Shown: positions 1,545-37,661, numbered from the stretch's first letter. The stretch is DNA of 64,000 nt from an uncultured Acidimicrobiales bacterium (GCA_958295755.1 OY282367.1:932022-996021), one strand, 5' to 3'. The notes: a model not told the origin generated them from the sequence alone. Numbers and translations are program-made.

Positions 1545-2573
1545 ATGAAGCGGCTAGCTCAGGGCGGACATCAGGTGTCAGTTGGTGCTACTGATAAGTC
1601 AAGAAGTCTGAGTTCTGCGCCTCTATCTATAGGTGGCGGACAGGGCACCCCCCCCCGACTACGCCCTGAATCAAGCCACACCGAGAGAGGTATTACCCTT
1701 CAAACGCTTATCGTAACAGCCGTGCTGGTGCTGGTGGCTGTTGGGGCAGCATTGGTGCTGGTTGCTATCAACCGCAGCTCTAGTGATGATTTTGAAGAAG
1801 CCGGCAATATTGACATTGAAGGTAAGTGCCAGACTTGGGAAATTCACTTGGCGACGCTTGAAGCCGCAGGCCACGGCGGGCCAGAAGGCCACGGCGGGGT
1901 TTTCTCAAGCAACATAGGCTGCCTAGCCACCTGCTACTGGGAACTAACCAACTGGGCACTGAGTATCCCAAATGCTAAATGGGAACTTCATCCGGGTGCG
2001 TATTCTGTGAGGAACAGAAAAGTACCCCAAGGAACCACCAATCCGCATCCGCATGTCTCTAAGTTGTATTACCACGATGACAACAGAGCACCAGCTATCG
2101 ATCAAATACGATTAGGAGTAGTCAGCCTGAGAGTAGGCGCAGGAACACAAGAACCGTCTCGTGGTTTTGGTGCTGGTACTACTGATCATCTGCCTGGACA
2201 TACAAGTCCTGGAAACGCAGGTCCTGATAAAGATGGAAAATCGCATTATTTCCGCTTCAGACCTGGTGCAAAGGGAGCTATGGGAAATCCTGGGAGACCT
2301 CTAACACCGGCAATGATAAAGAAAGGTATAGCCACTATTGCTGAACCAAACTGGATGTCCCGTGGGAATAACCCTGGCAGTGGTGTGCTCGCTACAAACT
2401 ACCCCAAAACCAGCGGGGCAACCGATTCCGATTGGGAAAGATATCTTTGGGAAGACGAATCATGGGAAGTACGAGCCGACCCGGGTCGAGAAGTCTGCGA
2501 AATAGTAAATGTCGCCCACGACGATCTACTAGTCTGCTCCTCAGCCAAAGAGGAATGCGAATCAACTACTTAG
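1545..2573 (+). CDS. Pilin-like (class III signal-peptide-like) secreted Cys-rich variable protein, family copy 1; leader disrupted upstream
   Basis: 342-aa ORF, identical to copy 2 from SAPLSIGGGQGTPPRL to the end. It has the ERGITLQTLIVTAVLVLVAVGAALVLVAI motif, six Cys, and the conserved tail WEDESWEVRADPGREVCEIVNVAHDDLLVCSS. The family GTG start with RBS (GTG at 1465) ends at TGA 1546-1548, which overlaps ATG 1545 as ATGA. Confidence 0.7.
   Translation: MKRLAQGGHQVSVGATDKSRSLSSAPLSIGGGQGTPPRLRPESSHTERGITLQTLIVTAVLVLVAVGAALVLVAINRSSSDDFEEAGNIDIEGKCQTWEIHLATLEAAGHGGPEGHGGVFSSNIGCLATCYWELTNWALSIPNAKWELHPGAYSVRNRKVPQGTTNPHPHVSKLYYHDDNRAPAIDQIRLGVVSLRVGAGTQEPSRGFGAGTTDHLPGHTSPGNAGPDKDGKSHYFRFRPGAKGAMGNPGRPLTPAMIKKGIATIAEPNWMSRGNNPGSGVLATNYPKTSGATDSDWERYLWEDESWEVRADPGREVCEIVNVAHDDLLVCSSAKEECESTT
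1648..1656 (+). repeat. Poly-C tract (C9) in the leader codons of copy 1
   Basis: Counted by eye: gggca-CCCCCCCCC-gact; encodes TPPR. Confidence 0.9.
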
Positions 2574-2594
2574 CATTCACATCCCCTCCCTATT

Positions 2595-3053
2595 CTAGTC
2601 GGTGTCGCTAGCGGCGCGAAGTCCGAAGCCGATTTGCAATGTGTTATGGATGCCTCTAACTTCTCCTTTAATGCCTCTAACTTCTCCTTCTAGGTGCTTG
2701 ATATCGCCTGATAATCTTCCCTCTAGCTTTTCCAGTTTGACAGAGAACTCTCCCTCTAACTTTTTCAGATCGACTGACAACTGCTTGTGATCTTCGGCTA
2801 ATTTATCGAGTTTTGTGGTGGTGGCTTCTAAAGCCTTGTCGAATCTGGTGTTAGTGGCTTCTAAAGCTTGGCTGAAACTGGTGTTAGTGGCTTCTAAAGC
2901 TTGGCTGAAACTGGTGTTGGTGGCTTCTAAAGCTTGGCTGAAGCCGTTTAGCTTGACTTCATAGTTGTCTAGTAGTTTGCGGGTTAGGCAACCCAATACT
3001 CCCAGGAATGCCGCCAGTGCGATACTGCCGAGTGTGATGATTACTACTTCCAT
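2595..3053 (-). CDS. N-terminally membrane-anchored coiled-coil protein with 11-aa tandem repeats (partner gene, copy 1)
   Basis: 152 aa. The N-terminal hydrophobic helix MEVVIITLGSIALAAFLGVLGCL is followed by 4 x (F[SD][QK]ALEATNTx) and then heptad-like LEGE/VRGIKGEVRGI segments. It is convergent with copy 1, with 21 nt between the stop codons. No recognised family. Confidence 0.7.
   Translation of the reverse strand: MEVVIITLGSIALAAFLGVLGCLTRKLLDNYEVKLNGFSQALEATNTSFSQALEATNTSFSQALEATNTRFDKALEATTTKLDKLAEDHKQLSVDLKKLEGEFSVKLEKLEGRLSGDIKHLEGEVRGIKGEVRGIHNTLQIGFGLRAASDTD
2811..2942 (-). repeat. 33-bp in-frame tandem repeat, 4 units, inside the coiled-coil gene
   Basis: Units ggtgttagtggcttctaaagcttggctgaaact encode FSQALEATNTS-type 11-mers. 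Confidence 0.85.
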
Positions 3054-3224
3054 CGCTACTCCTTTCGGTGGGGGAATTTCGTGGTTTCTTTTACCTATTT
3101 GCTCATATCAGCTAGTGTAGCAAATGAAGGCTGCAATTCTGTTTAGCGAAATCTGCCGATGTAAATGTACTGCTGGAATAGCTGAAGTGATTCCAACTGA
3201 AAAGCACTAAATATAATGTGGTAG

Positions 3225-3279
3225 TGCTATAATTTATGGTGGTGTGACTTCATATGAAGGTTGCTATCAACGCTTGATA
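3225..3279 (+). promoter_or_regulatory. Conserved promoter/leader of copy 2: extended -10, 12-bp palindrome, short hairpin
   Basis: tgcTATAAT at 3225-3233, CTTCATATGAAG at 3248-3259, and tatcaa-cgc-ttgata at 3265-3279. RBS GGGAGG lies 4 nt before GTG 3303. Confidence 0.55.
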
Positions 3280-3302
3280 CCGCAAAATAACAGGGAGGAA
3301 AA

Positions 3303-4415
3303 GTGATACTTCGTAAATCCAGAGAATCGTCAGGTGCGATGCTAGGGAGTGCCAGCTCTAGTAGTATGAAGCGGCTACCTCAGGGAAGGCATCAGGCGTC
3401 AGCCGGCACTGCTGATAGCCCAGTTGATACTGCTCGCAAGCCAAGAAGTATGAGTTCTGCGCCTCTATCTATAGGTGGCGGACAGGGCACCCCCCCCCGA
3501 CTACGCCCTGAATCAAGCCACACCGAGAGAGGTATTACCCTTCAAACGCTTATCGTAACAGCCGTGCTGGTGCTGGTGGCTGTTGGGGCAGCATTGGTGC
3601 TGGTTGCTATCAACCGCAGCTCTAGTGATGATTTTGAAGAAGCCGGCAATATTGACATTGAAGGTAAGTGCCAGACTTGGGAAATTCACTTGGCGACGCT
3701 TGAAGCCGCAGGCCACGGCGGGCCAGAAGGCCACGGCGGGGTTTTCTCAAGCAACATAGGCTGCCTAGCCACCTGCTACTGGGAACTAACCAACTGGGCA
3801 CTGAGTATCCCAAATGCTAAATGGGAACTTCATCCGGGTGCGTATTCTGTGAGGAACAGAAAAGTACCCCAAGGAACCACCAATCCGCATCCGCATGTCT
3901 CTAAGTTGTATTACCACGATGACAACAGAGCACCAGCTATCGATCAAATACGATTAGGAGTAGTCAGCCTGAGAGTAGGCGCAGGAACACAAGAACCGTC
4001 TCGTGGTTTTGGTGCTGGTACTACTGATCATCTGCCTGGACATACAAGTCCTGGAAACGCAGGTCCTGATAAAGATGGAAAATCGCATTATTTCCGCTTC
4101 AGACCTGGTGCAAAGGGAGCTATGGGAAATCCTGGGAGACCTCTAACACCGGCAATGATAAAGAAAGGTATAGCCACTATTGCTGAACCAAACTGGATGT
4201 CCCGTGGGAATAACCCTGGCAGTGGTGTGCTCGCTACAAACTACCCCAAAACCAGCGGGGCAACCGATTCCGATTGGGAAAGATATCTTTGGGAAGACGA
4301 ATCATGGGAAGTACGAGCCGACCCGGGTCGAGAAGTCTGCGAAATAGTAAATGTCGCCCACGACGATCTACTAGTCTGCTCCTCAGCCAAAGAGGAATGC
4401 GAATCAACTACTTAG
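3303..4415 (+). CDS. Pilin-like secreted Cys-rich variable protein, family copy 2 (intact, GTG start)
   Basis: 370 aa. Strong RBS (cagGGAGGaaaaGTG), long leader with a C9 tract, ERGITLQTLIV plus a hydrophobic helix, and the conserved N- and C-terminal modules. Confidence 0.75.
   Translation: MILRKSRESSGAMLGSASSSSMKRLPQGRHQASAGTADSPVDTARKPRSMSSAPLSIGGGQGTPPRLRPESSHTERGITLQTLIVTAVLVLVAVGAALVLVAINRSSSDDFEEAGNIDIEGKCQTWEIHLATLEAAGHGGPEGHGGVFSSNIGCLATCYWELTNWALSIPNAKWELHPGAYSVRNRKVPQGTTNPHPHVSKLYYHDDNRAPAIDQIRLGVVSLRVGAGTQEPSRGFGAGTTDHLPGHTSPGNAGPDKDGKSHYFRFRPGAKGAMGNPGRPLTPAMIKKGIATIAEPNWMSRGNNPGSGVLATNYPKTSGATDSDWERYLWEDESWEVRADPGREVCEIVNVAHDDLLVCSSAKEECESTT
3490..3498 (+). repeat. Poly-C tract (C9) in the leader codons of copy 2
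   Basis: Counted by eye; in frame with the downstream body. Confidence 0.9.
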
Positions 4416-4436
4416 CATTCACATCCCCTCCCTATT

Positions 4437-4895
4437 CTAGTCGGTGTCGCTAGCGGCGCGAAGTCCGAAGCCGATTTGCAATGTGTTATGGATGCCTCTA
4501 ACTTCTCCTTTAATGCCTCTAACTTCTCCTTCTAGGTGCTTGATATCGCCTGATAATCTTCCCTCTAGCTTTTCCAGTTTGACAGAGAACTCTCCCTCTA
4601 ACTTTTTCAGATCGACTGACAACTGCTTGTGATCTTCGGCTAATTTATCGAGTTTTGTGGTGGTGGCTTCTAAAGCCTTGTCGAATCTGGTGTTAGTGGC
4701 TTCTAAAGCTTGGCTGAAACTGGTGTTAGTGGCTTCTAAAGCTTGGCTGAAACTGGTGTTGGTGGCTTCTAAAGCTTGGCTGAAGCCGTTTAGCTTGACT
4801 TCATAGTTGTCTAGTAGTTTGCGGGTTAGGCAACCCAATACTCCCAGGAATGCCGCCAGTGCGATACTGCCGAGTGTGATGATTACTACTTCCAT
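4437..4895 (-). CDS. Membrane-anchored 11-aa-repeat coiled-coil protein (partner gene, copy 2; identical to copy 1)
   Basis: The 152-aa translation is identical to 2595-3053. Confidence 0.7.
   Translation of the reverse strand: MEVVIITLGSIALAAFLGVLGCLTRKLLDNYEVKLNGFSQALEATNTSFSQALEATNTSFSQALEATNTRFDKALEATTTKLDKLAEDHKQLSVDLKKLEGEFSVKLEKLEGRLSGDIKHLEGEVRGIKGEVRGIHNTLQIGFGLRAASDTD
4653..4784 (-). repeat. 33-bp in-frame tandem repeat, 4 units
   Basis: Same as 2811-2942, shifted by 1842 nt. Confidence 0.85.
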
Positions 4896-5066
4896 CGCTA
4901 CTCCTTTCGGTGGGGGAATTTCGTGGTTTCTTTTACCTATTTGCTCATATCAGCTAGTGTAGCAAATGAAGGCTGCAATTCTGTTTAGCGAAATCTGCCG
5001 ATGTAAATGTACTGCTGGAATAGCTGAAGTGATTCCAACTGAAAAGCACTAAATATAATGTGGTAG

Positions 5067-5121
5067 TGCTATAATTTATGGTGGTGTGACTTCATATGAA
5101 GGTTGCTATCAACGCTTGATA
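5067..5121 (+). promoter_or_regulatory. Conserved promoter/leader of copy 3
   Basis: Identical to 3225-3279, shifted by 1842 nt. Confidence 0.55.
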
Positions 5122-5144
5122 CCGCAAAATAACAGGGAGGAAAA

Positions 5145-6226
5145 GTGATACTTCGTAAATCCAGAGAATCGTCAGGTGCGATGCTAGGGAGTGCCAGCTC
5201 TAGTAGTATGAAGCGGCTACCTCAGGGAAGGCATCAGGCGTCAGCCGGCACTGCTGATAGCCCAGTTGATACTGCTCGCAAGCCAAGAAGTATGAGTTCT
5301 GCGCCTCTATCTCTAGGTGGCGGACAGGGCACCCCCCCCCGACTGGATCAAGCCATAGATCAAGCCGCGAGTCAAGCAACACCGAGAGAGGTATTACACT
5401 TCAGACGCTTATCGTAACAGCCGTGCTGGTGCTGGTGGCTGTTGGGGCAGCATTGGTGCTGGTTGCTATCAACCGCAGCTCTAGTGATGATTTTGAAGAA
5501 GCCGGCAATATTGGCATTGAAGGTAAGTGCCAGACTTGGGAAATCCACTTGGCGACGCTTGAAGCAGCAGGGCACGGCGGGCCAGAAGGCCACGGCGGGG
5601 TTTTCTCAAGCAACATAGGCTGCCTAGCACCCTGCTACTGGGATATAACAGGTTATACGGATGCTGGCGCAATTAAAACTTTATGGCCGACGGCAATTCA
5701 TGTGCGAACTTATAATAATCCCCCTTCTTGGTATTCGCACACCTCAAGGTTGTATTACCACGATGACAACAGACCACCAACTATGGACCAATATAGATTA
5801 GGGGTTGTCTACTCTAGAGGCGGTGATAGGGATCACATGGCGAATAGGAACAAAAGTTGGATGAATCCAAATTATGAAGGGAGTGAGCCGTTTTTTCGTC
5901 GGACACTTCCTGGTGTTGGAACGCACCCGGGGACTCCTTTGAGTTCGGCATGGTTATTCCATCGACACCTTAACAAGAGGCTCCCTACTGTTACAAAACC
6001 CAATTGGATATCTTATGGTCCAGATCCTGGCAACGTGCTAGCTACAAATACAGGTTTAACTGCTACCTCCGATCATGATGAATTAGCAAAATACACCTGG
6101 GAAGACGAATACTGGGAAGTACGAGCAGATCCGGGCCGAGAAGTTTGTGAGATAGTAAATGTTGCCAATGACGATCTTCTCGTCTGCTCATCAGCCAAAG
6201 AAGAATGCGAACCAGCTGATACTTAG
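5145..6226 (+). pseudogene. Pilin-like variable protein, family copy 3, frameshifted at the poly-C tract (phase-OFF allele or pseudogene)
   Basis: The leader ORF 5145-5417 stops early. The family body (…LVLVAVGAALVLVAINRSSSDDFEEAGNI… to …VCSSAKEECEPADT) continues in another frame to 6226. Relative to copy 4 the only frame-relevant difference is C9 versus C10. Confidence 0.75.
5332..5340 (+). repeat. Poly-C tract (C9) in copy 3, one C short of the in-frame length
   Basis: Counted by eye: gggca-C9-gactggatcaagcc. Confidence 0.85.
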
Positions 6227-6279
6227 AAGCGAAGACGCTAACCCCTGAGCAACTACCGAAGTGGTGAAATCCTTCGGTT

Positions 6280-6804
6280 CTAGTCGGTGTCGCTAGTGGC
6301 GCGAAGTCCGAAGCCGATTTGCAATGTGCTATGAATGCCTCTAACTTCTCTTTTAATGCCTCTAACTTCTCCTTCTAGCTGCTTCAGATCGCCTGACAAC
6401 TGCTTGTGATCTTCGGCTAATTTGTCGAGTTTTATGTTGGTGGCTTCCAAAGCCTTGTCAAATCTGCTGCTGGTGGCCTCTAAAGCCTTGTCAAATCTGA
6501 TGTTGGTGGCCTCTAAAGCACTATCAAGCTTTGTGTTGGTGGCTTCCAAAGCCTTGTCAAATCTGATATTGGTGGCCTCTAAAGCCTTGTCGAATCTGAT
6601 GTTGGTGGCTTCCAAAGCCTTGTCGAATCTGATGTTGGTGGCTTCCAAAGCACTATCAAGCTTTGTGTTGGTGGCTTCTAAAGCTTGGCTGAAGCCGTTT
6701 AGCTTGACTTCATAGTTGTCTAGTAGCTGGCGGGTTAGCCAACCCAATACTCCCAGGAATGCCGCCAGTACGATACTGCCGAATGTGATGATTACTACTT
6801 CCAT
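6280..6804 (-). CDS. Membrane-anchored 11-aa-repeat coiled-coil protein (partner gene, copy 3, expanded repeat)
   Basis: 174 aa. Same N-terminal helix and C-terminal GEVRGIKREVRGIHSTLQIGFGLRATSDTD tail, but 8 repeat units instead of 4. Confidence 0.7.
   Translation of the reverse strand: MEVVIITFGSIVLAAFLGVLGWLTRQLLDNYEVKLNGFSQALEATNTKLDSALEATNIRFDKALEATNIRFDKALEATNIRFDKALEATNTKLDSALEATNIRFDKALEATSSRFDKALEATNIKLDKLAEDHKQLSGDLKQLEGEVRGIKREVRGIHSTLQIGFGLRATSDTD
6430..6693 (-). repeat. 33-bp in-frame tandem repeat, 8 units
   Basis: Encodes FSQALEATNTK/LDSALEATNIR/FDKALEATNIR… 11-mers. Confidence 0.85.
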
Positions 6805-6912
6805 CGCTACTCCTTTCAGTGGGGGCGGTTTCTTTTACCTATTTGCTCATATCAGCTAGTGTAGCAAATGAAGGCTGCAATTCTGTCTAACGAAATCTGC
6901 CGACAGCGACTA

Positions 6913-6988
6913 TCTGGGAAATACATTTATCGACGCTTGAAGCAGCAGGTCACGGCGGGCCAGAAGTCCATGGCGGTGTCTTCTGAAA
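6913..6988 (+). pseudogene. Orphan fragment of a pilin-like family gene (about 76 nt)
   Basis: ctgggaaatacatttatcgacgcttgaagcagcaggtcacggcgggccagaagtccatggcgg matches the family segment encoding WEIHLATLEAAGHGGPEGHGG. There is no start and no body. Confidence 0.6.
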
Positions 6989-6989
6989 C

Positions 6990-7218
6990 CTAGAGAGTCC
7001 CAGAATCTCGCTGCTTTGTCTCAGGGTTCAAAGGCAAAAATCTTCTGGCTTTAGTATTCCCCTCTGCAAGAATTTGGCCAGAATCCAGGAGCTTATTGAG
7101 AATTCGTCTGGTGGCAGGTATTGACTTGCCTCCTTGTGGGTAGCTCGCGCTTGAACTCCAGCTCTTCATGCTCAATGCGGCCGAAGTGCTCCCAAAATTC
7201 CTCTTCTGTGAATCGCAT
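6990..7218 (-). pseudogene. Decayed remnant of a regulator-like gene (AlbA_2-type N-terminus joined to a winged-helix-like C-terminus)
   Basis: The minus-strand ATG at 7218 gives MRFTEEEFWEHFGRIEHEELEFKRELP and then stops. A second frame (6990-7175) gives …GKSIPATRRILNKLLDSGQILAEGNTKARRFLPL. The family resemblance is by eye only. Confidence 0.3.
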
Positions 7219-7348
7219 CATAATTCTAAAGATTATACAATCTTTGGCGATTTTTAGCAATTTATGGCGATTTTTCTAAAGTTGTTAGAATTAACTGTTG
7301 GAATAGATGAAGTGATTCCACTGAATGGCACTAAATATAATGTGGTAG

Positions 7349-7426: not shown

Positions 7427-8512
7427 GTGATACTTCGTAAATCTAGAGAATTGTCAGTTGCCAGTCTCAAGGGAGCCGGCTCTAAGCTGGCTCAGGGCGG
7501 ACATCAGGTGTTAGCCGGCACTGCTGATAGCCCAGTTGATACTGCTCGCAAGTCAAGAAGTATGAGTTCTGCGCCTCTATCTCTAAGTGGCGGACAGGAC
7601 ACCCCCCCCCCGACTGGATCAAGCCATAGATCAAGCCGCGAGTCAAGCAACAGCGAGAGAGGTATTACACTTCAGACGCTTATCGTAACAGCCGTGTTGG
7701 TGCTGGTGGCTGTTGGGGCAGCATTGGTGCTGGTTGCTATCAACCGCAGCTCTAGCGACGATTTTGAAGAAGCCGGCAATATTGGCATTGAAGGTAAGTG
7801 CCAGACTTGGGAAATCCACTTGGCGACGCTTGAAGCAGCAGGGCACGGCGGGCCAGAAGGCTACGGCGGGGTTTTCTCAAGCAACATAGGCTGCCTAGCA
7901 CCCTGCTACTGGGAACTAGGCAGCTGGAGTTCCACAAGTGCTAAATGGAGTTTTTATCCGGGTGCGTATTCTGTGAGGAATAGAGCGGGCAAGCATGTCT
8001 CTAAGTTGCATTACCACGATGACAACAGAGCACCAGCTATCAATCAAATACGATTAGGAGTAGTCAGCCTACGAGTATCAATAACAGACACAGAACCGTT
8101 TAATTATGGTGATACTGATCATCTCCCTGGAACTTCAGGTCCTGGAAGGGCAGGTCCTGATAAAGATGGAAAGTCGCATTATTTCCGCTTCAGATCTGGT
8201 TCTCCTACGCAGGGTGGAGCTAGGAGCTATTCTGGGAGACCTTTAACACAGAACATGATAGAAGCTGGGATAGACACTATTGCGGAACCTAACTGGATGT
8301 CCCGTGGGAATAACCCCGGCAGTGGTGTGCTCGCTACAAACTACCCCCAAACCAGCGGGGGAACCGATTGGGAAAGATATCTTTGGGAAGATGAATCATG
8401 GGAAGTACGAGCCGACCCGGGCCGAGAAGTCTGTGAAATAGTAAATGTCGCCCACGACGACCTTCTAGTCTGCTCTTCTGCTAAAGAAGAATGCGAACCA
8501 GCTGATACTTAG
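7427..8512 (+). CDS. Pilin-like secreted Cys-rich variable protein, family copy 4 (intact, C10 tract)
   Basis: 361 aa, with SERGITLQTLIV plus a hydrophobic helix, the conserved modules, and a distinct core. No coiled-coil partner lies downstream. Confidence 0.75.
   Translation: MILRKSRELSVASLKGAGSKLAQGGHQVLAGTADSPVDTARKSRSMSSAPLSLSGGQDTPPPTGSSHRSSRESSNSERGITLQTLIVTAVLVLVAVGAALVLVAINRSSSDDFEEAGNIGIEGKCQTWEIHLATLEAAGHGGPEGYGGVFSSNIGCLAPCYWELGSWSSTSAKWSFYPGAYSVRNRAGKHVSKLHYHDDNRAPAINQIRLGVVSLRVSITDTEPFNYGDTDHLPGTSGPGRAGPDKDGKSHYFRFRSGSPTQGGARSYSGRPLTQNMIEAGIDTIAEPNWMSRGNNPGSGVLATNYPQTSGGTDWERYLWEDESWEVRADPGREVCEIVNVAHDDLLVCSSAKEECEPADT
7602..7611 (+). repeat. Poly-C tract (C10) in the leader codons of copy 4
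   Basis: Counted by eye: ggaca-C10-gactggatcaagcc; encodes TPPP. Confidence 0.85.
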
Positions 8513-8702: not shown

Positions 8703-8939
8703 ATGGGGAAGCCGTCACTGATTGAAAGAATGCCGACAAAAGATCCTGGCGAAATTTGGACAGCTTGGGACGGTAAAGACTACACGATACACGCCGATGG
8801 AACAACACTCATTGACGAAGGCGGGAACTATCTATCCCCCTTCGATCTTCAACCACTGCCTAACGATACTGTTGATTTCGTCGCGCCGCTAGCCTGCGCC
8901 ACGCCCGAAGATGTGGAACGGGCAATAGCGATGTCCTAG
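8703..8939 (+). CDS. Hypothetical 78-aa protein (antitoxin position upstream of the PIN remnant)
   Basis: TATAAT at about 8670 and a strong RBS (aaAGGAGGagtacaATG). No recognisable domain. Confidence 0.5.
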   Translation: MGKPSLIERMPTKDPGEIWTAWDGKDYTIHADGTTLIDEGGNYLSPFDLQPLPNDTVDFVAPLACATPEDVERAIAMS

Positions 8940-8941
8940 AA

Positions 8942-9151
8942 GTGGAAGTGGTACTTGTAGACACCTCTGCTGTTTCGGCTTTGCTTTCTGTACGTAGCAG
9001 AAAGCGCCCGTTACAGAATGCAGTATTGAGAGCAATAGCCGGCAGAAAAACTGCGGTTTCGCCTGTGATAGAGGCGGAATATAGTTCTCTTACCTATTGT
9101 AGTCTTGTAGGGGGCGGACAGTTAGGGGGTGTTCTTGCCATTCACGAATAG
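8942..9151 (+). pseudogene. Truncated VapC-like PIN-domain ORF
   Basis: It starts 2 nt after the upstream stop. The N-terminus VEVVLVDTSAVSALLS…SPVIEAEY looks like a PIN domain with its first Asp. It is only 69 aa, and the last ~20 codons are antisense to the carB 3' end. Confidence 0.4.
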
Positions 9152-12377: not shown

Positions 12378-14180
12378 CTAGTGAAAGCTCTCTAGTAATT
12401 CGGCGAACTCACCGAAAAGATAGCGGCTATCGTGGGGGCCGGGGCCGGCTTCGGGGTGGTATTGCACACCAAAAGCTGGGGCGTCGGTTGCTCGCAGACC
12501 TTCTACGGTGCCGTCGTTGAGGTTGAGGTGAGTGATTTTGAAAGATGGCGAGGTGAGGCTCGGAGAGGCGACCGAGAAGTTGTGATTTTGGGCAGTGATT
12601 TCAATCTCACCTGTGGCGCAGTTTTGAACGGGGTGGTTGCCGCCGTGATGTCCGAAAGGCAGTTTTATGATTTCTGCCCCTAGAGCTTGCGCCAAGATTT
12701 GATGCCCCAAGCAGATGCCAAATATTGGGACTGCACCTAGCAGTTCTTCTACTGTGGCTGAAGCGTAAAGTGCTGTTGCTGGGTCACCGGGGCCGTTGGA
12801 GAGAAAAACCCCTTGAGGTTCTCTAGCTAAAATGTCGGCAGCTGTTGTGGAAGCTGGCACTACTTCAACTTCGGCTATAGCGGTGAGCTGGCGTAAAATC
12901 GTGTGCTTGATGCCGAGATCTAAGGCGACTACTTTCCATCTTGGGTCAGCAGATGCTGATGTAAGGTTGGTGCTTTTATTGGTGAAGCTGGGTTTTTTAT
13001 CGGCTAAGCCTAGCTTTTCATCTGCGAACCAAGGCTCTTGGCTCGTTACTTCTGCCACTAGATCTACCCCTGATGTGCCAGGTTCTTGCTGGGCTACTTT
13101 TAGCAACATATCCATTGCGTCTGTGCTGTCAGACGGGCCGAAAGCACCTACCATCGCACCTTCTTCGCGGATGTGGCGCGTCAGGCGGCGGGTGTCTACT
13201 CTACTCAGAACAGCAATACCAGCTGCTTGCAAGCTGGCTTCCAAGCTATGTTCTGAACGCCAGCTGCTAGGGATTCGTGCTAGGTCGCGCACTATCACAC
13301 CACGGCAGGCTGGCGACCAACTTTCGCTGTCTTGAGCAGATGTGCCGTAGTTGCCGATGTGCGGATATGTAAAGGCGATGATTTGGCCAGCATAGGAAGG
13401 GTCAGTAATGATCTCTTGATAGCCGGTAAGTGCAGTATTGAACACGACTTCGCCGGCAACGAAGCTTCTGCCCCTAGCCGCAGCAGCGACACTTCTAGCA
13501 CTTGTCTCATCATCTCTTGAGAGTTCGGCTGATCTTGAGAGTTCCGCTGGAAGTTCCGCTCCGCGCAGCTCGCCGTGAAAGACTTCACCGTCGCGCAAAA
13601 CCAGCATTCCGGGGCGTATCGCTCCTCTTTGCCCACTCACTTTTACTGCCTGTGACGCAGTGTTTTCTGCGACCTGGTCTTCTGCCACTTGGTTTTCTGC
13701 TACCTGGTTTTCTGCTACTTGCGGCGCATCACTGGCAACACTTGAAGCAGTCAATATGCCAGAGAGCACACCATTTACAAAGCGAGAAGAATCTTCTGTT
13801 GAATACTCTTTGGCGAGTTCCACAGCTTCGTCAATAGCCACCGCCACAGGTATATCCTCGCAAAAACACATCTCATATACCGCCAGCCGCAAAACAGCCA
13901 AATCAACTTGCGCCAGCCTTTCAGTTCGCCATTGGTCACTATGAGCACCGATGAGGGCGTCTATCTCACTGTGATGCTTAACTACACCTTCAAGCTGTGC
14001 CACCACGAAATCCGTGGGTGGAACATCTTGCCCCTCCAACACTTCAAGGGGAGACACTTGCTTTATGTCGGCTTCATATAAAAGAGCGATGGTGCGTTCT
14101 CTGCCACGATGGCGAGTTTTGCTGGGGAGTAAGCCGTCGCTCACTTCTGTGCCCCAAATCTTTCCACGCTTGCGCCCCAA
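12378..14180 (-). CDS. carA: Single ORF encoding NusB (N-terminal ~145 aa) fused in frame to carbamoyl-phosphate synthase small subunit CarA (C-terminal ~410 aa)
   Basis: NusB motifs: [28 protein letters not shown]. Then comes the linker [20 protein letters not shown], followed by CarA motifs: [36 protein letters not shown], and the GATase [10 protein letters not shown]. There is no in-frame stop between the parts. An internal ATG at 13607 could start a separate CarA. Confidence 0.85.
13665..13724 (-). repeat. 15-bp tandem repeat, 4 units, encoding the (QVAEN)n linker
   Basis: Plus-strand units: ttctgcgacctggtc, ttctgccacttggtt, ttctgctacctggtt, ttctgctacttgcgg. Confidence 0.8.
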
Positions 14181-25418: not shown

Positions 25419-26747
25419 CTAACTCGTGTCAGCCTGTTGCGGGATACGCGAAGAGTGGTTCGCCCCGGGGCGCACCTCTGTGATATCTCCGCTGGAATCT
25501 ATATAAAAGGCAGAACCGCCAGTTTGTTCAGGTTGTACGGCAGACCCAAACATAGTTTTGGCATAGTCTTCTATATTCCGCTCAAGTTTTTCAGCAAGCC
25601 GATATATATCTGGCGGCTCCCAAGTCTGTTCGCTACGCTTCTTGGAAGGATTCCAACGCTTTCTGCCAATCTGAACAATATCATCAGCTTCAAGCCTGTC
25701 AATGATCCGCCTCGCAGTAATCTCAGACACGTCCAACCTGTTTTGCATTTCATATCGGGTAAACACAGGAAACTCAGAGAGGTGAACAACAGCTTCGTAC
25801 AGATTCCTGCGTTTGCCATGAGACGCACCCAACCTCCCAAACCACTCTGACATCAATGCGTCACGCTCTGCGTAAAATTCTGCCATGCCCGCCAGAGCCG
25901 CTTCGACAGCCACAGCCTGAATCTGAACAGCCGGGTTGATGTCTCCGGCGCGATAAGAGTCAAACGATGCGAAATACTGAGATTTGAGAGCCAGCAAAGC
26001 CGAAGACACAGGTAGCGGCTTAGCACCGGACAGCAGTAGCATTCTTTGAATAGCTACCCTTCCCACACGGCCGTTGCCGTCTAAAAACGGGTGGATGCTC
26101 TCAAACTGAGCGTGCGACAAAGCCAACCGCTCCACTATCCCAATATCAGAACGAGAAGAAAATTCCACCCAGTCGTTTATCAGCCCGCTTACCGCTTCCG
26201 GCAAGGGTGCTACATAGTGTGCATCAAAAATCCCGCCTCGGCTGCCTATCCAGACTCGATCATCAGATTTGGAGCGGAAACGCCCAGCATAGTCCTCATC
26301 TCGCATGATTATCTCGTGATCTGCCAAAATCGTCTGCCGTGTTAAAGGCTGCGAGGGATGTTCCATAACCCGCAACAGACATTCCAAATTTTTTGCTGTT
26401 TCAAGTGCCCCGGGTTTAGCGTCCACTCCGGCGGCGGCACGGCATAAGTTCTGAAATTTAGTGCGGTTTCCTTCTATCCGAGAAGAGTTGATGGCTTCGG
26501 TTCTTAAGAGCAGTCCTTCCATGAATCCGCCCGTGCCACGGCGATGCTGTTCTAGTTTTTCTCTGGCACTCAGTGCCGCTTCCTTGATTTCTGCCGACAG
26601 AGGCACAGACGCTATGTCGGCTATGAGTGGCGGGACAGCGAATTCCACATTGCCGTATCTACTTTGCCCGATGTCTGTTAGCTCATTGACTCTGCGCACA
26701 ATTGCGCCAAACGGAGGGAGAGTTAATGATGTGCTCATCAAAACCAT
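25419..26747 (-). CDS. fic: Fic family protein (class II type with an N-terminal inhibitory helix motif)
   Basis: Fic motif HPFLDGNGRVGR. The N-terminal segment SSRIEGN fits the inhibitory pattern [ST]xxxE[GN]. A winged-helix-like C-terminal region reads ITARRIIDRLEADDIV. Confidence 0.88.
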   Translation of the reverse strand: MVLMSTSLTLPPFGAIVRRVNELTDIGQSRYGNVEFAVPPLIADIASVPLSAEIKEAALSAREKLEQHRRGTGGFMEGLLLRTEAINSSRIEGNRTKFQNLCRAAAGVDAKPGALETAKNLECLLRVMEHPSQPLTRQTILADHEIIMRDEDYAGRFRSKSDDRVWIGSRGGIFDAHYVAPLPEAVSGLINDWVEFSSRSDIGIVERLALSHAQFESIHPFLDGNGRVGRVAIQRMLLLSGAKPLPVSSALLALKSQYFASFDSYRAGDINPAVQIQAVAVEAALAGMAEFYAERDALMSEWFGRLGASHGKRRNLYEAVVHLSEFPVFTRYEMQNRLDVSEITARRIIDRLEADDIVQIGRKRWNPSKKRSEQTWEPPDIYRLAEKLERNIEDYAKTMFGSAVQPEQTGGSAFYIDSSGDITEVRPGANHSSRIPQQADTS

Positions 26748-26896: not shown

Positions 26897-27874
26897 TTAG
26901 GATGTGTCCTCTTCGCATAGGTTGTCTTTTGCGGCTGAGGAGCAGACTAGTAGGTCGTCGTGGGCGACATTGACTATCTCACAGACCTCTCGGCCAGGGT
27001 CGGCTCGCACTTCCCATGATTCGTCTTCCCAAGAGTATCTTGCCAAATCGACGTCAGCTATGGTTTCAGGGTAGCCAGTAGCGAGGACACCGCTACCGGG
27101 ATTCTCACCAAAAGAAAACCAATTAGGTTCCATAATACCGGGGATACCAGCTGCTATCTGTGCCTGCGTCACAGGTCTCCCAGGAAATATATCAACTGAA
27201 GCCGCACGGCCACGTATGAAGAAATGCCATTCTTCATCTGAATATAAACCTGCAGCCTTAGCAAACGAGCCGGCACCAGGGCTTCGATGATCAAGAGGAT
27301 TTCTACCACGTATATTCGCTTCTGGTGTTGATGGTGATACTCTCGCGTTGATAACTCCTAATCGTATTTGGTCGATAGCTGGTGCTCTGTTGTCATCGTA
27401 ATAATACAACTTAGAGACATGATCATGCACAGAGCCTGGTGGTCTGTTCCTCACAGAAAACGCGCCCGGACGCGCATCGACACCAGGCCCAGTACCGCCT
27501 CCCCAATTGGTTATTTCCCAGTAGCATGGTGCTAGGCAACCTATGTTGCTTGAGAAAACACCGCCGTTGCCTTCTGGCCCGCCGCGTCCTGCTGCTTCAA
27601 GCGTCGCCAAATGAATTTCCCAAGTCTGGCACTTAGCGTCAATGTCAATATTGCCGGCTTCTTCAAAATCATCACTAGAGCTTCGGTTGATAGCAACCAA
27701 CACCAAAGCCGCCCCAACAGCCACTAGTACCAATACAGCTGTAACAATCAGCGTCTGAAGCGTGAAGCCTCTCTCGGTTTGCTTTAATCTAGCACCCCCC
27801 CCCTCCGCAGTAACCCGCAAAGACGGCAACCTCGACACAGACACCATCAACCTCCCAAACTTACGAAACACCAA
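26897..27874 (-). CDS. Pilin-like secreted Cys-rich variable protein, family copy 5 (dispersed copy)
   Basis: 325 aa. TERGFTLQTLIVTAVLVLVAVGAALVLVAINRSSSDDFEEAGNI… and …WEDESWEVRADPGREVCEIVNVAHDDLLVCSS. Short leader with a G9 tract (EGGGA). Confidence 0.75.
   Translation of the reverse strand: MVFRKFGRLMVSVSRLPSLRVTAEGGGARLKQTERGFTLQTLIVTAVLVLVAVGAALVLVAINRSSSDDFEEAGNIDIDAKCQTWEIHLATLEAAGRGGPEGNGGVFSSNIGCLAPCYWEITNWGGGTGPGVDARPGAFSVRNRPPGSVHDHVSKLYYYDDNRAPAIDQIRLGVINARVSPSTPEANIRGRNPLDHRSPGAGSFAKAAGLYSDEEWHFFIRGRAASVDIFPGRPVTQAQIAAGIPGIMEPNWFSFGENPGSGVLATGYPETIADVDLARYSWEDESWEVRADPGREVCEIVNVAHDDLLVCSSAAKDNLCEEDTS
27795..27803. repeat. Homopolymer tract: C9 on the plus strand, G9 in the copy-5 mRNA
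   Basis: Counted by eye: agca-CCCCCCCCC-tccgc. Confidence 0.9.
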
Positions 27875-35107: not shown

Positions 35108-35966
35108 GTCAAATACCAGAACAGAACAAACTACCGTCAAGCAGATCGGAGTAACCTTCGCGGCTGAGGTGGACGGGGTGGATTTTGCGAACCTTACAGA
35201 TGAAGTCACTGACCACATATATGATCTGCTGTTGGAATATGGCGTGCTGTTTTTCAGAGGCGCAAATATCACAGCAGAACAGCAAGAAATCTTGGCGCGC
35301 TCCTTCGGCGAACCTGCTGTATTTCCTATATCGCGCATCACCCACCCTGAACGCGAAGTGCCGTTCTTGAGTGAAATCACAGACACTCCTGATAGCCCGC
35401 CAGACGCCGACGGTTGGCACACCGACATCACTTGGATCCCGAACCCGCCCAAGATTGGCATTTTGGCGGCTTTAGATATTCCAGAATCAGGTGGAGACAC
35501 CTTGTGGGCTGATTTGTATGCCGCTTATGATAATCTTTCGCCTGTGATGCAGGAGTTCTTTGAGAAACTCACCTTGAAACATGTCATATCTGATGTGATT
35601 CTTAACGCAGTAGTGCGCCTCGGCAAACCTGAAGCTGTGTCTTACATCAAAGAGAAGTTCCCGCCAGTTTCGCATCCTCTTATCCGCACACACCCCGACA
35701 CCGGCCGCAAGGCACTATTCGTGGCTGGACATTTCATGCAAAGTGTGGAAGGGATGAACGACAAAGAGTCGGAGATGCTGATTAACTGGCTTAGTGAATA
35801 TATAAACAACCCGAACTTTCATGTGCGCTGGCGGTGGCAAGAAGGCGATCTGGCTATCTGGGACGAGCGATGCACTAACCACCGGGCACTTTCTAACCAC
35901 TATCCCCAATATCGCCGCATGAGGCGGTGCACGATTGAAGGCGATGTCCCCTTCTTCAGTGCTTGA
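35091..35966 (+). CDS. TauD/TfdA-family Fe(II)/2-oxoglutarate dioxygenase, paralog 2
   Basis: WHTDITW, GGDTLWAD and CTNHRA. The start was moved to ATG 35091, which follows AAGGAAGGAG. It overlaps the ald end by 17 nt. Confidence 0.82.
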   Translation: MAVIAESNTRTEQTTVKQIGVTFAAEVDGVDFANLTDEVTDHIYDLLLEYGVLFFRGANITAEQQEILARSFGEPAVFPISRITHPEREVPFLSEITDTPDSPPDADGWHTDITWIPNPPKIGILAALDIPESGGDTLWADLYAAYDNLSPVMQEFFEKLTLKHVISDVILNAVVRLGKPEAVSYIKEKFPPVSHPLIRTHPDTGRKALFVAGHFMQSVEGMNDKESEMLINWLSEYINNPNFHVRWRWQEGDLAIWDERCTNHRALSNHYPQYRRMRRCTIEGDVPFFSA

Positions 35967-36567
35967 TTCTTCAGAGTTTGGCTATGTAAGTGGCGATGAA
36001 GTGAGTCGCCCTAGAGCTCTTATCTCTGTGGCAGACAAGACTGGCATCGTGGAGTTAGCGAAATCGCTAGAGTCGTATGGCTGGGAAATCATAGCCTCTG
36101 GAGGCACCGCAGATCATCTGTTAGAAGCCGGTGTTGAGGTGACTTCGGTGACCGAAATCACAGATTTCCCTGAGATTTTAGACGGACGAGTAAAAACCAC
36201 ACATCCTAAAATCTTCGGCGGAATTTTGGCCGACAGAAATAACCTAAACCATTTGTACGATCTGGTGCAACAAGAAATTGATCCCATAGAGATGGTGGTT
36301 TGTAACTTTTATCCGTTTGAACAGATGCCTTCGCTTGAGATGATTGATATCGGCGGACCAGCGATGGTACGCGCTGCTGCTAAGAACTATGAGAATGTTT
36401 TGGTGCTTGTTTCTCCCAGCGATTACGCCCCTGTTCTGGAGGTAGTTTTGCCGTGGGAAAGTGCCACCGAAGATTTCTCGCCTGTGGAGATGCGCAGAAG
36501 TTTGGCGCGCAAAGCTTTTGAGATGGCCTCAGCATACGATGCTGCCATAGCTGAGTGGCTCAGCTGA
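35935..36567 (+). CDS. purH: PurH N-terminal part: IMP cyclohydrolase (MGS-like) domain; gene split from the transformylase part
   Basis: ALISVADKTGIVELA, SGGTA, GRVKTTHPKIFGGIL, IDIGGPAMVRAAAKN. It ends …AYDAAIAEWLS-TGA. The start is uncertain (35944 or 36001 are possible). Confidence 0.8.
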   Translation: MKAMSPSSVLDSSEFGYVSGDEVSRPRALISVADKTGIVELAKSLESYGWEIIASGGTADHLLEAGVEVTSVTEITDFPEILDGRVKTTHPKIFGGILADRNNLNHLYDLVQQEIDPIEMVVCNFYPFEQMPSLEMIDIGGPAMVRAAAKNYENVLVLVSPSDYAPVLEVVLPWESATEDFSPVEMRRSLARKAFEMASAYDAAIAEWLS

Positions 36568-37661
36568 ACATGGGAGACAGCGGGGAAGAATTCTCTGAAG
36601 TGTTGCCTGAGAGCATCAACCTTCAACTTGAAAAAGCCGAAGACTTGCGCTACGGCGAAAACCCGCATCAACAAGGAGCGCGGTATCGCTTCGTGGGGGC
36701 TGGCAGTTGGTTGGACACGGCCCAACAGCACGGGGGCAAACAGCTTTCGTATCTGAATTTGAACGATAGCGAAGCGGCGTGGAGCCTGGCTTGTGCACTA
36801 GATGGTGTGGAAGCTCAAGATGGTGCGGAGCTGGACAATGGTGCAGGGCTGGAAGACGGGCAACAGGGAGGCGGGCAGCAGGGCCAGTCAGCGGCGGTGA
36901 TTGTGAAACATGCCAACCCCTGCGGAGTAGCTATAGCTGAAGATATAGGTGTCGCTTGGGAGAGAGCGTATGCTTGCGACCCGAACTCTGCTTTCGGTGG
37001 AGTTGTGGCTCTAAGTCGCCCTGTGGATGCTAAGTTGGCTAAGAAAATCACGGAGAACTTCCTGGAAGTCTTGATTGCTCCTGGCTTTGAAGAAGCTGCT
37101 TTAGAAGTGCTAGCGAAAAAGAAGAACTTAAGAGTGATTGAAGCTTCGCAACCTCCAACCGCAACGCTTCATTTTCGCAGTATAGACGGCGGATTGTTGG
37201 TACAAAAAGCTACTGCGCTTCCAGATTTTTTGGCATTTCACAAACAGCTAGGTGCCGAGAGTTACGGTGAGGCTGGTATGGCAGAAATAGTCACCCGTCG
37301 CCCTCCCACAGAAGAAGAAATTCGTGACTTGGCGTTCGCGTGGGTGGTAGTGTCGGCCACTCAATCCAACGCAATAGTGTTAGCCAAAAACTTACAAGCT
37401 GTAGGAATAGGGGCAGGCCAGCAAAACCGCAAAGACGCAGCAATGCTGGCAGCTTTCAAAGCCGATGTGCGAGCCGCAGGATCTGCGTGTGCTAGCGATG
37501 CTTTCTTTCCTTTCAGAGATGGCTTGGATCAAGTAGGTGAGGCAGGATGCACGGCTGTGATACAGCCGGGTGGCTCAATCCGAGACGAAGAAGTAATCGC
37601 AGCAGCTGATGAACACAATCTGGCAATGATTTTCACCCACCAAAGGCGATTCCTGCACTAG
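36555..37661 (+). CDS. purH: PurH C-terminal part: AICAR transformylase domain, in a different frame
   Basis: LRYGENPHQ, VKHANPCGVA, and the C-terminal RRFLH. It overlaps the upstream part by 13 nt in another frame. Confidence 0.8.
   Translation: MAQLNMGDSGEEFSEVLPESINLQLEKAEDLRYGENPHQQGARYRFVGAGSWLDTAQQHGGKQLSYLNLNDSEAAWSLACALDGVEAQDGAELDNGAGLEDGQQGGGQQGQSAAVIVKHANPCGVAIAEDIGVAWERAYACDPNSAFGGVVALSRPVDAKLAKKITENFLEVLIAPGFEEAALEVLAKKKNLRVIEASQPPTATLHFRSIDGGLLVQKATALPDFLAFHKQLGAESYGEAGMAEIVTRRPPTEEEIRDLAFAWVVVSATQSNAIVLAKNLQAVGIGAGQQNRKDAAMLAAFKADVRAAGSACASDAFFPFRDGLDQVGEAGCTAVIQPGGSIRDEEVIAAADEHNLAMIFTHQRRFLH

Follow-up and report, generated by a model that had tools for sequence, protein, structure and literature searches.

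Variable-length hendecad coiled-coil proteins with a predicted membrane anchor in sponge-associated Acidimicrobiia, encoded in part beside pilin-like genes

In a 64,000-nucleotide (nt) stretch of the genome of an uncultured Acidimicrobiales bacterium (GCA_958295755.1 OY282367.1:932022-996021; hereafter the window), three minus-strand open reading frames (ORFs) that converge on pilin-like genes encode repetitive proteins of 152, 152 and 174 amino acids (aa). What are these proteins, on which side of the membrane would they lie, and do they act together with their pilin-like neighbors? An earlier note, made from this sequence alone, described N-terminally anchored coiled-coil proteins of a family that it did not recognize; we find the three ORFs where that note placed them. 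The family is previously undescribed, lineage-restricted and of a familiar general kind. The reading that we favor, by a little, is a coiled coil in the form of a rod, which the N-terminal helix fixes to the cytoplasmic membrane and which reaches into the cytoplasm, with a link to the pilin-like proteins that is at most specific to one subfamily.

The N-terminal hydrophobic helix claimed for these proteins is present, with a Kyte-Doolittle mean of 2.46-2.54 over the 19 residues from residue 3 (2.1-2.5 over residues 1-21). Beyond it, a single 11-residue frame spans residue 37 to about residue 135, in which units of the xFSxALEATNx type are followed by one KLDKLAEDHKQ unit and then by units of the LSVDLKKLEGE type, three in copy 1 and one in copy 3. 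The reported difference of four versus eight repeats stands: copies 1 and 2 each have four units of the ALEAT type (residues 37-80), and copy 3 has eight (residues 37-124). With four more ALEAT units and two fewer LEGE units than copy 1, copy 3 has a net gain of 22 residues. The 33-base-pair (bp) array of copy 3 also has a 99-bp higher-order period (2.6 copies, score 348 in Tandem Repeats Finder). The segments that had been called heptad-like are of two kinds: VRGIKGE is indeed a 7-residue unit, encoded by a 21-bp repeat, but the LEGE segments are hendecads, because they lie in the same 11-residue register as the ALEAT units. The conserved tail, LQIGFGLRA(A/T)SDTD, is kept as described.

A hendecad coiled coil is recognized by hydrophobic positions a, d, (e) and h, a periodicity of about 3.67 residues and a continuous helix. 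The proteins have the 11-residue register, core positions occupied by F or L (a), A (d), L (e) and T (h), hydrophobic periodicity peaking at 3.6-3.65 residues, and a single predicted helix; AlphaFold2 models copy 1 as one uninterrupted helix over residues 4-151, with a mean predicted local distance difference test score (pLDDT) of 76 from a shallow three-sequence alignment. The core composition agrees with the rules for hendecad coiled coils with small-residue cores (PMC9858780). The claim of a long helix with 11-residue coiled-coil periodicity is thus borne out, and we infer that the proteins form oligomeric coiled coils. The same periodicity is also found in lipid-surface amphipathic helices and stress proteins of the apolipoprotein, LEA or YtxH type, whose 11-mers would rest along the surface of a membrane or lipid body, and there are weak matches to the Apolipoprotein (21-32 bits), Baculo_PEP_C, DUF948 and ssr2422 thylakoid families. 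These scores, however, fall far under the curated cut-offs (PF01442 needs 90 bits), and the narrow stripe of F/L, A, L and T, with small residues at d and h, is of the hendecad-core type (PMC9858780) and not a wide lipid face, so that we consider a lipid-surface role very unlikely.

The family as a whole can be defined by a membrane helix that has no N-tail ahead of it and ends in (L)LGW or similar, by K/R residues following that helix, by 11- and 7-residue repeats in variable number and by one DH motif. Exactly one [LIVM]xxDHxx[LM] motif follows the variable repeats in 23 of 23 members (the three window proteins and 20 relatives), and members range from 59 to 268 aa. Within the window subfamily the lengths are 141, 141, 152, 162, 174 and 229 aa, the differences being whole 11- or 7-residue units, as expected from the length variability proposed earlier. 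A sister subfamily, with the sequence MVIITTLTSIG...LREDHARLEGKLDG..., varies likewise between orthologous loci of related strains, from 112 to 141 aa at one position (123, 130 and 141 among them) and from 172 to 268 aa at another (172, 176, 214, 228, 260 and 268). Computed at 0.15 nm per residue, the spacing from the anchor to the DH motif and C-terminus comes to about 18 nm in the 152-aa form, 22 nm in the 174-aa form and 30 nm in the 229-aa form, and because repeat lengths differ from strain to strain, the repeats set this spacing.

The proposed architecture would consist of one membrane helix, basic residues immediately behind it, a long hendecad helix, a few terminal heptads and a short tail. 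The length of the rod would be set by unstable in-frame 33-bp and 21-bp repeats, through slippage or unequal recombination, and across paralogues and strains the distance from the anchor to the LxxDHxxL motif and C-terminus would range between about 5 and about 30 nm.

In the searches made here, all relatives came from Candidatus Hopanoidivoransaceae, a group of sponge-associated Acidimicrobiia, or from related metagenome contigs; the loci examined are referred to below by numbers beginning with L, of which L004 is the syntenic locus of a related genome and L001 lies on a short-read contig. The first protein search returned three ENA metagenome proteins, two of them cut inside the repeats by Nextera adapter sequence. 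Since the coiled-coil proteins of the window and of L004 are themselves absent from the 15-billion-protein collection, the number of relatives from the protein search is an underestimate. An alignment of the coiled-coil proteins found nothing in GTDB representative genomes or JGI metagenomes. An all-against-all hidden Markov model (HMM) search gave 88 hits, mostly repeat-driven matches to unrelated proteins such as giant short-tandem-repeat proteins, and P0072 was the sole credible relative among them (hhalign probability 96.5% against the window family over the N-terminal 42 columns). More divergent members include a 59-aa form without repeats in L005 and L006 (MHIAITITLL...LKADHKGL...) and, in L016, one of 207 aa that has both 11-mer and 7-mer repeats. 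L005, L006 and L019 also carry a second type, whose N-tail is short and acidic, and L007 has a remnant of it. No further member turned up in the remainder of the window or in the sequences flanking the examined loci, and nothing relevant was found in the literature on Hopanoidivorans and on pilins of sponge Acidimicrobiia.

The three ORFs look like genuine genes of a new protein family. In 8 of 8 aligned upstream regions GAAAGGAGTAG is invariant, as is GAAAGGAG positioned 5 nt 5' of the ATG, and exact matches to the 33-nt core of a conserved upstream block (Table 1) occur only ahead of coiled-coil genes: three times in the window and once for each homologue in L001-L004. This block is likely a promoter or a 5' leader. 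A promoter scan identified no site conserved among the copies, Rfam contained no RNA family matching the window, and folding of the 5' leader was not significant (z-score -1.6). The reading frame is open in seven copies, with indels of whole repeats only, and relatives at 20-35% identity retain the whole architecture, which is a stronger argument for coding than substitution counts. A chance ORF in repetitive DNA, or the antisense of some other feature, might be suspected because the repeats can be read through on the other strand as well (6422-6715, for instance) and because the exact proteins of the window are missing from so large a protein collection. Against such an accident stand the strong, conserved ribosome-binding site and ATG, the transmembrane helix, and the architecture and motifs kept in distant relatives that are called as genes in other assemblies; we find it hardly credible.

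Between the upstream block and the ribosome-binding site lies a run of C whose length varies between 5 and about 10 nt (approximately 3067-3080 and 6817-6826 on the minus strand of the window), which is interrupted in the window copies (CCCCCACC) and uninterrupted, with 9-10 C, in L004. It may modulate expression.

Although the earlier note counted three copies, the sequence from 1609 to 3470 is exactly that from 3451 to 5312: all 1,862 bp agree when shifted by 1,842 bp, as in a tandem duplication of a cassette of pilin-like and coiled-coil genes. Copies 1 and 2 are thus one sequence inside a perfect duplication, and the window holds two distinct alleles rather than three independent ones. Either a very recent tandem duplication, gene conversion of the cassette or an assembly artefact would account for this identity.

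Are the coiled-coil genes tied to the pilin-like genes? All seven copies of the window subfamily with usable downstream flank converge on a pilin-like gene, whose stop codon is 22-58 nt away. L004 carries three coiled-coil genes (of 141, 162 and 229 aa) among six pilin-like ones, and every coiled-coil gene there is convergent with a pilin-like gene, making three pairs; the same convergent pair is present in L001. In L005, L006, L007, L016 and L019, small homologues are found at distances of 136-2,200 nt from pilin-like genes, and the pilin-like genes near these smaller or different members are more distant, at 33-37% identity. An absence of co-occurrence in other genomes, which had been put forward as evidence against a functional pair, is not what we observe, because pairs recur in L004 and L001 and homologues lie near pilin-like genes in L005, L006, L016 and L019. 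The linkage is only partly supported.

The spacing of the two genes was also part of the earlier description. The divergent region of about 250 bp is confirmed, at 249 nt from the coiled-coil ATG (3053) to the start of the longest ORF of the next pilin-like gene (3303), while the 21-nt distance between convergent stops holds for copies 1 and 2 but not for copy 3. The 21-nt gap contains no terminator-like site, and its folding is not significant (z-score +0.35); the transcripts of the convergent genes may overlap. One could then suppose that the arrangement is mainly regulatory, with transcription running from the coiled-coil gene into the pilin-like gene, or the other way round, serving as antisense control and the protein being secondary, a notion suggested by stops just 21 nt apart across a gap lacking a terminator-like site or stable structure. 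We judge this to be highly improbable, as the protein architecture is kept at 20-35% identity across the family and the gap widens to 53-58 nt in other pairs.

Table 1. Coordinates of the coiled-coil genes, their pilin-like partners and associated features in the window
Feature	Coordinates	Strand	Basis or remark
Coiled-coil copy 1, 152 aa	2595-3053	minus	ORF analysis
Copy 1 transmembrane helix, residues 3-23	2985-3047	minus	Hydropathy
Copy 1 hendecad region, residues 37-135	2649-2945	minus	11-residue register
Copy 1 LAEDHKQL motif, residues 85-92	2778-2801	minus	DH motif scan
Copy 1 33-bp tandem array	2821-2942	minus	Tandem Repeats Finder: 3.7 copies, 94% matches, score 207
Copy 1 Shine-Dalgarno AAAGGAG	3059-3065	minus	5 nt ahead of ATG
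Copy 1 33-nt invariant core of ~75-nt conserved upstream block	3109-3141	minus	Alignment
Copy 1 convergent stop-to-stop gap	2574-2594		21 nt
Coiled-coil copy 2, 152 aa	4437-4895	minus	DNA identical to copy 1
Copy 2 33-bp tandem array	4663-4784	minus	Tandem Repeats Finder: 3.7 copies, 94% matches
Copy 2 Shine-Dalgarno (same)	4901-4907	minus	Sequence read
Copy 2 upstream core (same)	4951-4983	minus	
Copy 2 convergent stop-to-stop gap	4416-4436		21 nt
Coiled-coil copy 3, 174 aa	6280-6804	minus	8 ALEAT-type hendecads, 1 LEGE unit, 2 VRGI heptads
Copy 3 33-bp tandem array	6431-6684	minus	Tandem Repeats Finder: period 33 at 6434-6684, 7.6 copies, score 316
Copy 3 Shine-Dalgarno (same)	6810-6816	minus	Sequence read
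Copy 3 upstream core (same)	6853-6885	minus	
Copy 3 convergent stop-to-stop gap	6227-6279		53 nt
Pilin-like partner gene 1	1545-2573	plus	Convergent with coiled-coil copy 1
Pilin-like partner gene 2	3303-4415	plus	Convergent with copy 2, divergent from copy 1
Pilin-like partner gene 3	5145-6226	plus	Convergent with copy 3
Pilin-like C tracts	1648-1656, 3490-3498, 5332-5340, 7602-7611, 27795-27803		

To place the rod relative to the membrane, we examined the charges flanking the helix in 17 members. All 17 have 0-2 residues before the helix, none of them K or R, and 1-4 K/R within 12 residues after the best 19-residue hydrophobic window. Given the lack of an N-tail and the K/R after the helix, the positive-inside rule, which is the one basis of this prediction, puts the rod in the cytoplasm (N-out/C-in). 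The pilin-like proteins have a basic leader before their membrane helix and six conserved Cys after it, and for this reason their variable domain should be outside.

The stalk or spacer proposed in the earlier note, coupled to the variable protein, would have the reverse orientation: N-in/C-out, with a rod passing through the wall to carry, space or shield the pilin-like protein and with repeats tuning its reach. Such a stalk would fit the tight, recurrent adjacency to a gene with a predicted external product (now also seen in a second genome), the rod lengths of 18-30 nm, which are within the range of Gram-positive walls, and a repeat number that is quick to change between strains. It does not fit the flanking charges, as none of the 17 checked members has a basic N-region and all have K/R after the helix, the opposite of a signal anchor; nor does it fit the lack of a signal-peptidase site, a conserved lipobox or LPXTG, or the location of the sister subfamily away from pilin-like genes. 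With the rod predicted to be cytoplasmic and the pilin-like variable domain expected outside, the external stalk is the less likely topology and, in our view, a doubtful one. As a stalk functionally coupled to the variable protein, the proposal has only partial support. A lipoprotein anchor was rejected because the candidate Cys is not conserved: Cys22 (in VLGC) is present in copies 1 and 2 only, and all other members have Trp at this position.

Several observations weigh against the favored reading, some of them concerning the link to the pilin-like genes. About half of the close pilin-like genes lack a coiled-coil partner, as do most distant pilin-like loci, including most of those in Ca. 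Hopanoidivorans cymbastelae, and the coiled-coil variant does not track the neighboring pilin-like type. The sister subfamily occupies a locus with the order leuD, coiled-coil gene, CN_hydrolase (nitrilase family), coiled-coil gene, DUF3090 and giant-protein gene, where no pilin-like gene lies within 6 kb; both kinds of locus, pilin-like and CN_hydrolase, are present on one 2.0-Mb contig. In the window subfamily the proportion of nonsynonymous differences (pN) is about equal to that of synonymous differences (pS), from very few differences, and purifying selection is thus unsupported there; for the N-terminus of the sister subfamily, pN/pS is about 0.44. The AlphaFold2 model, from its three-sequence alignment, is that of a monomer and is silent on oligomeric state, and misassembly could have produced the exact 1,862-bp copy. 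Finally, fast change in repeat number is more typical of surface-exposed proteins, and on this ground we retain some modest belief in an external rod.

The first of these points also speak for a simpler history, in which the coiled-coil protein has its own housekeeping-type membrane role and its gene is a passenger, captured by the pilin-like cassette and amplified with it while remaining functionally uncoupled. The presence of family members at a conserved metabolic locus that lacks pilin-like genes (leuD, CN_hydrolase, DUF3090), the close pilin-like genes that have no partner, the lack of co-variation between the two proteins and the coiled-coil gene's own conserved upstream block are all in keeping with this. 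However, independent distant members (the 59-aa and 94-aa genes of L005/L006, and those of L016 and L019) also adjoin pilin-like genes, and convergence at a gap of 21-58 nt is kept in two genomes. We regard an uncoupled passenger as unlikely overall, though as a serious contender. The window subfamily is built into a pilin-like cassette of 1.84 kb and is duplicated and shuffled along with it. Under the membrane-anchored cytoplasmic rod that we favor, this subfamily alone would have any link to the pilin-like protein, perhaps through contact with the long cytoplasmic leader or the membrane helix of the latter. Both this interaction and the topology of the rod are predictions from sequence.

The pilin-like proteins themselves form a family with 112 relatives, all of them unnamed and devoid of Pfam domains. 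Matches to the family in the genome collection were confined to Candidatus Hopanoidivoransaceae (Acidimicrobiales), namely to a 2.6-Mb chromosome and to Ca. Hopanoidivorans cymbastelae, and an alignment of the family found nothing in viral contigs or JGI metagenomes. The proteins contain an invariant sequence (E)xG(F/I/Y)TLQTLIVTAV, without the Glu at +5 of a class III signal (G|F-T-L-x-E), and the PilX_N score is 13.8 bits against a cut-off of 25.5. The proteins have no sequence or fold match in the PDB (AlphaFold2 model with a predicted template modeling score, pTM, of 0.74), and there is no pilus machinery within the window. The fifth pilin-like copy is without a coiled-coil partner and adjoins a Fic/DOC-family gene and a 222-aa ORF with no family match (25419-26747 on the minus strand and the neighboring 26897-27874).

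The neighboring, apparently phase-variable pilin-like genes are the most interesting aspect of this locus. Every pilin-like gene carries a tract of C9-C11 (G9-G10 in some), found in the window (Table 1) and in L001, L002, L004, L005-L010, L015, L017 and L020-L026. In most genes the tract lies 37-77 nt upstream of the invariant TLQTLIV codons (134-143 nt in L006 and L010), and relatives at about 33% identity also have it. The whole window contains six C/G runs of at least 8 nt, and five of these are pilin-like tracts. The length of the tract sets the frame of the leader ORF relative to the membrane and mature part: the two frames agree in copy 4 (C10) but not in copy 3 (C9, in the same context), in the L004 gene at 8110 (C11) or in the L001 gene (C9, on a megahit-style k141 contig). 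In partner gene 3, the break in frame between the leader ORF (5145-5417) and the membrane and mature part (5333/5423-6226) falls at the C9 tract. These tracts suggest phase variation by slipped-strand mispairing, with the caveat that long-read assemblies are prone to homopolymer errors. In the same assembly purH (MGS + AICARFT/IMPCHase) is split into overlapping ORFs (35935-36567 and 36555-37661) by a frameshift that reflects either a symbiont pseudogene or an indel error, which bears on the trust to be placed in the homopolymer lengths. In L002 (386-815), two inverted pilin-like leaders stand face to face within about 430 bp, either as an inversion junction of opposite copies or as a chimeric short-read contig.

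Taken further, the two genes could make up a contingency cassette in which a surface protein, diversified among its paralogues, is switched on and off by the C9-C11 tract in its leader, the rod, itself preceded by a variable C-run ahead of the ribosome-binding site, changes in steps of 1.6 nm through its 33-bp repeats, and the two cooperate physically to give combinatorial variation of the envelope. The rod would then set the presentation, retention or assembly of the surface protein, and the variation would act against host recognition or phage. We think this quite unlikely.

The gene order of the window, with alaS, ruvX, mltG, aro genes, efp, nusB-carA and carB, fits an actinobacterium. The nusB-carA gene is a fused 600-aa ORF (12378-14180, minus strand; NusB + CPSase_sm_chain + GATase), also present in L004 (17046-18782). 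Upstream of coiled-coil copy 3 lie a 24-codon pilin-like fragment (6912-6983; TWEI...GGPE...) and a short minus-strand ORF (7093-7260; ...EELEFKRELP...) resembling the start of an AlbA_2/Schlafen-type protein; full AlbA_2 genes adjoin the arrays in L005 and L006, and the two window remnants look like scars of array rearrangement. Between pilin-like copy 4 and carB are a 78-aa ORF (8703-8939) and a truncated 69-aa ORF (8942-9151), whose counterparts in L004 are a 78-aa ORF with one substitution and an intact 136-aa PIN-domain gene, so that 8703-9151 is a decayed toxin-antitoxin-like pair. Beside the sister subfamily in related genomes (L027-L034), from about 7000 onward on the minus strand, is a giant ORF of up to about 13,900 aa, followed by a DUF3090 gene, with a DNA methyltransferase and SacI-like restriction pair a few kb away.

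Variable envelope systems have been much studied in pathogens and are little known in uncultivated symbionts. Here, a family clearly marked by its N-terminal anchor, its variable hendecad repeats and its one DH motif is placed in recombining cassettes with a multi-copy, apparently phase-variable surface-protein family of sponge-associated Acidimicrobiia. If the two genes cooperate, they would offer a tractable case of a symbiont varying its display to host or phages; if not, the coiled-coil proteins would still provide a natural series of membrane-anchored hendecad rods of graded length.

How do these proteins compare with known families? In agreement with the claim of an unrecognized family, all library scores lie below the cut-offs (Pfam, NCBIfam, PHROGs, PADLOC and PDB), the matches of the coiled-coil proteins in the first four being sub-threshold coiled-coil noise only and the best E-value in the PDB sequence search being 0.19. 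Candidates rejected on score were Apolipoprotein A1/A4/E (PF01442; 21.1 and 20.7 bits in the window and 32 for the 229-aa relative, against a 90-bit cut-off, with PDB apolipoprotein E matches at E 0.24 or worse), Baculo_PEP_C (PF04513; 28.6 and 23.4 bits against 38), DUF948 (PF06103; 17.8 and 16.4 bits against 37.2) and DUF1664 (PF07889; 17.3 and 19.5 bits against 34.6). With the apolipoprotein, LEA, DUF948 and YtxH types, which give its best though weak library matches, the family shares 11-residue periodicity, but its hydrophobic face is narrow and coiled-coil-like.

The streptococcal M protein is an external rod with a cleaved signal peptide and a C-terminal LPXTG, whose length varies by in-frame tandem repeats. 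The window family resembles it in being a coiled-coil rod varied in length by such repeats, and differs in its uncleaved N-terminal anchor, the lack of LPXTG and the predicted cytoplasmic orientation. An M-protein-like fibril was rejected, the window proteins having no Pro, a tail ending ...RAASDTD and no basic N-region. Scy and FilP are actinobacterial proteins with a long hendecad coiled coil and small (Ala) core residues, and carry the DivIVA-like N-terminal motif RGYDxxEVD (PMC9858780). The likeness lies in the phylum, the long hendecad stretches and the Ala core; Scy and FilP, however, have the RGYDxxEVD motif and lack a membrane helix. Membership in this DivIVA-like group was rejected, since RGYD is absent in 23 of 23 members.

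EzrA, the N-terminal region of RNase Y, and ZapG/YhcB are N-terminally anchored cytoplasmic coiled-coil proteins of bacteria. They are without hendecad tandem repeats or repeat-number polymorphism, and there is no sequence relationship: the EzrA model, with a cut-off of 556 bits, gives no match to the window proteins and 15.7 bits for the relative P0072, and ZapG-like and RNase_Y_N matches are sub-threshold, on unrelated look-alikes only. Yet the family resembles them in a helix starting at residues 1-3, the lack of a basic N-region, basic residues immediately behind the helix and a long predicted coiled coil; the EzrA-type helix position and flanking charges are present in 17 of 17 members, from which the positive-inside rule alone would give the same cytoplasmic location.

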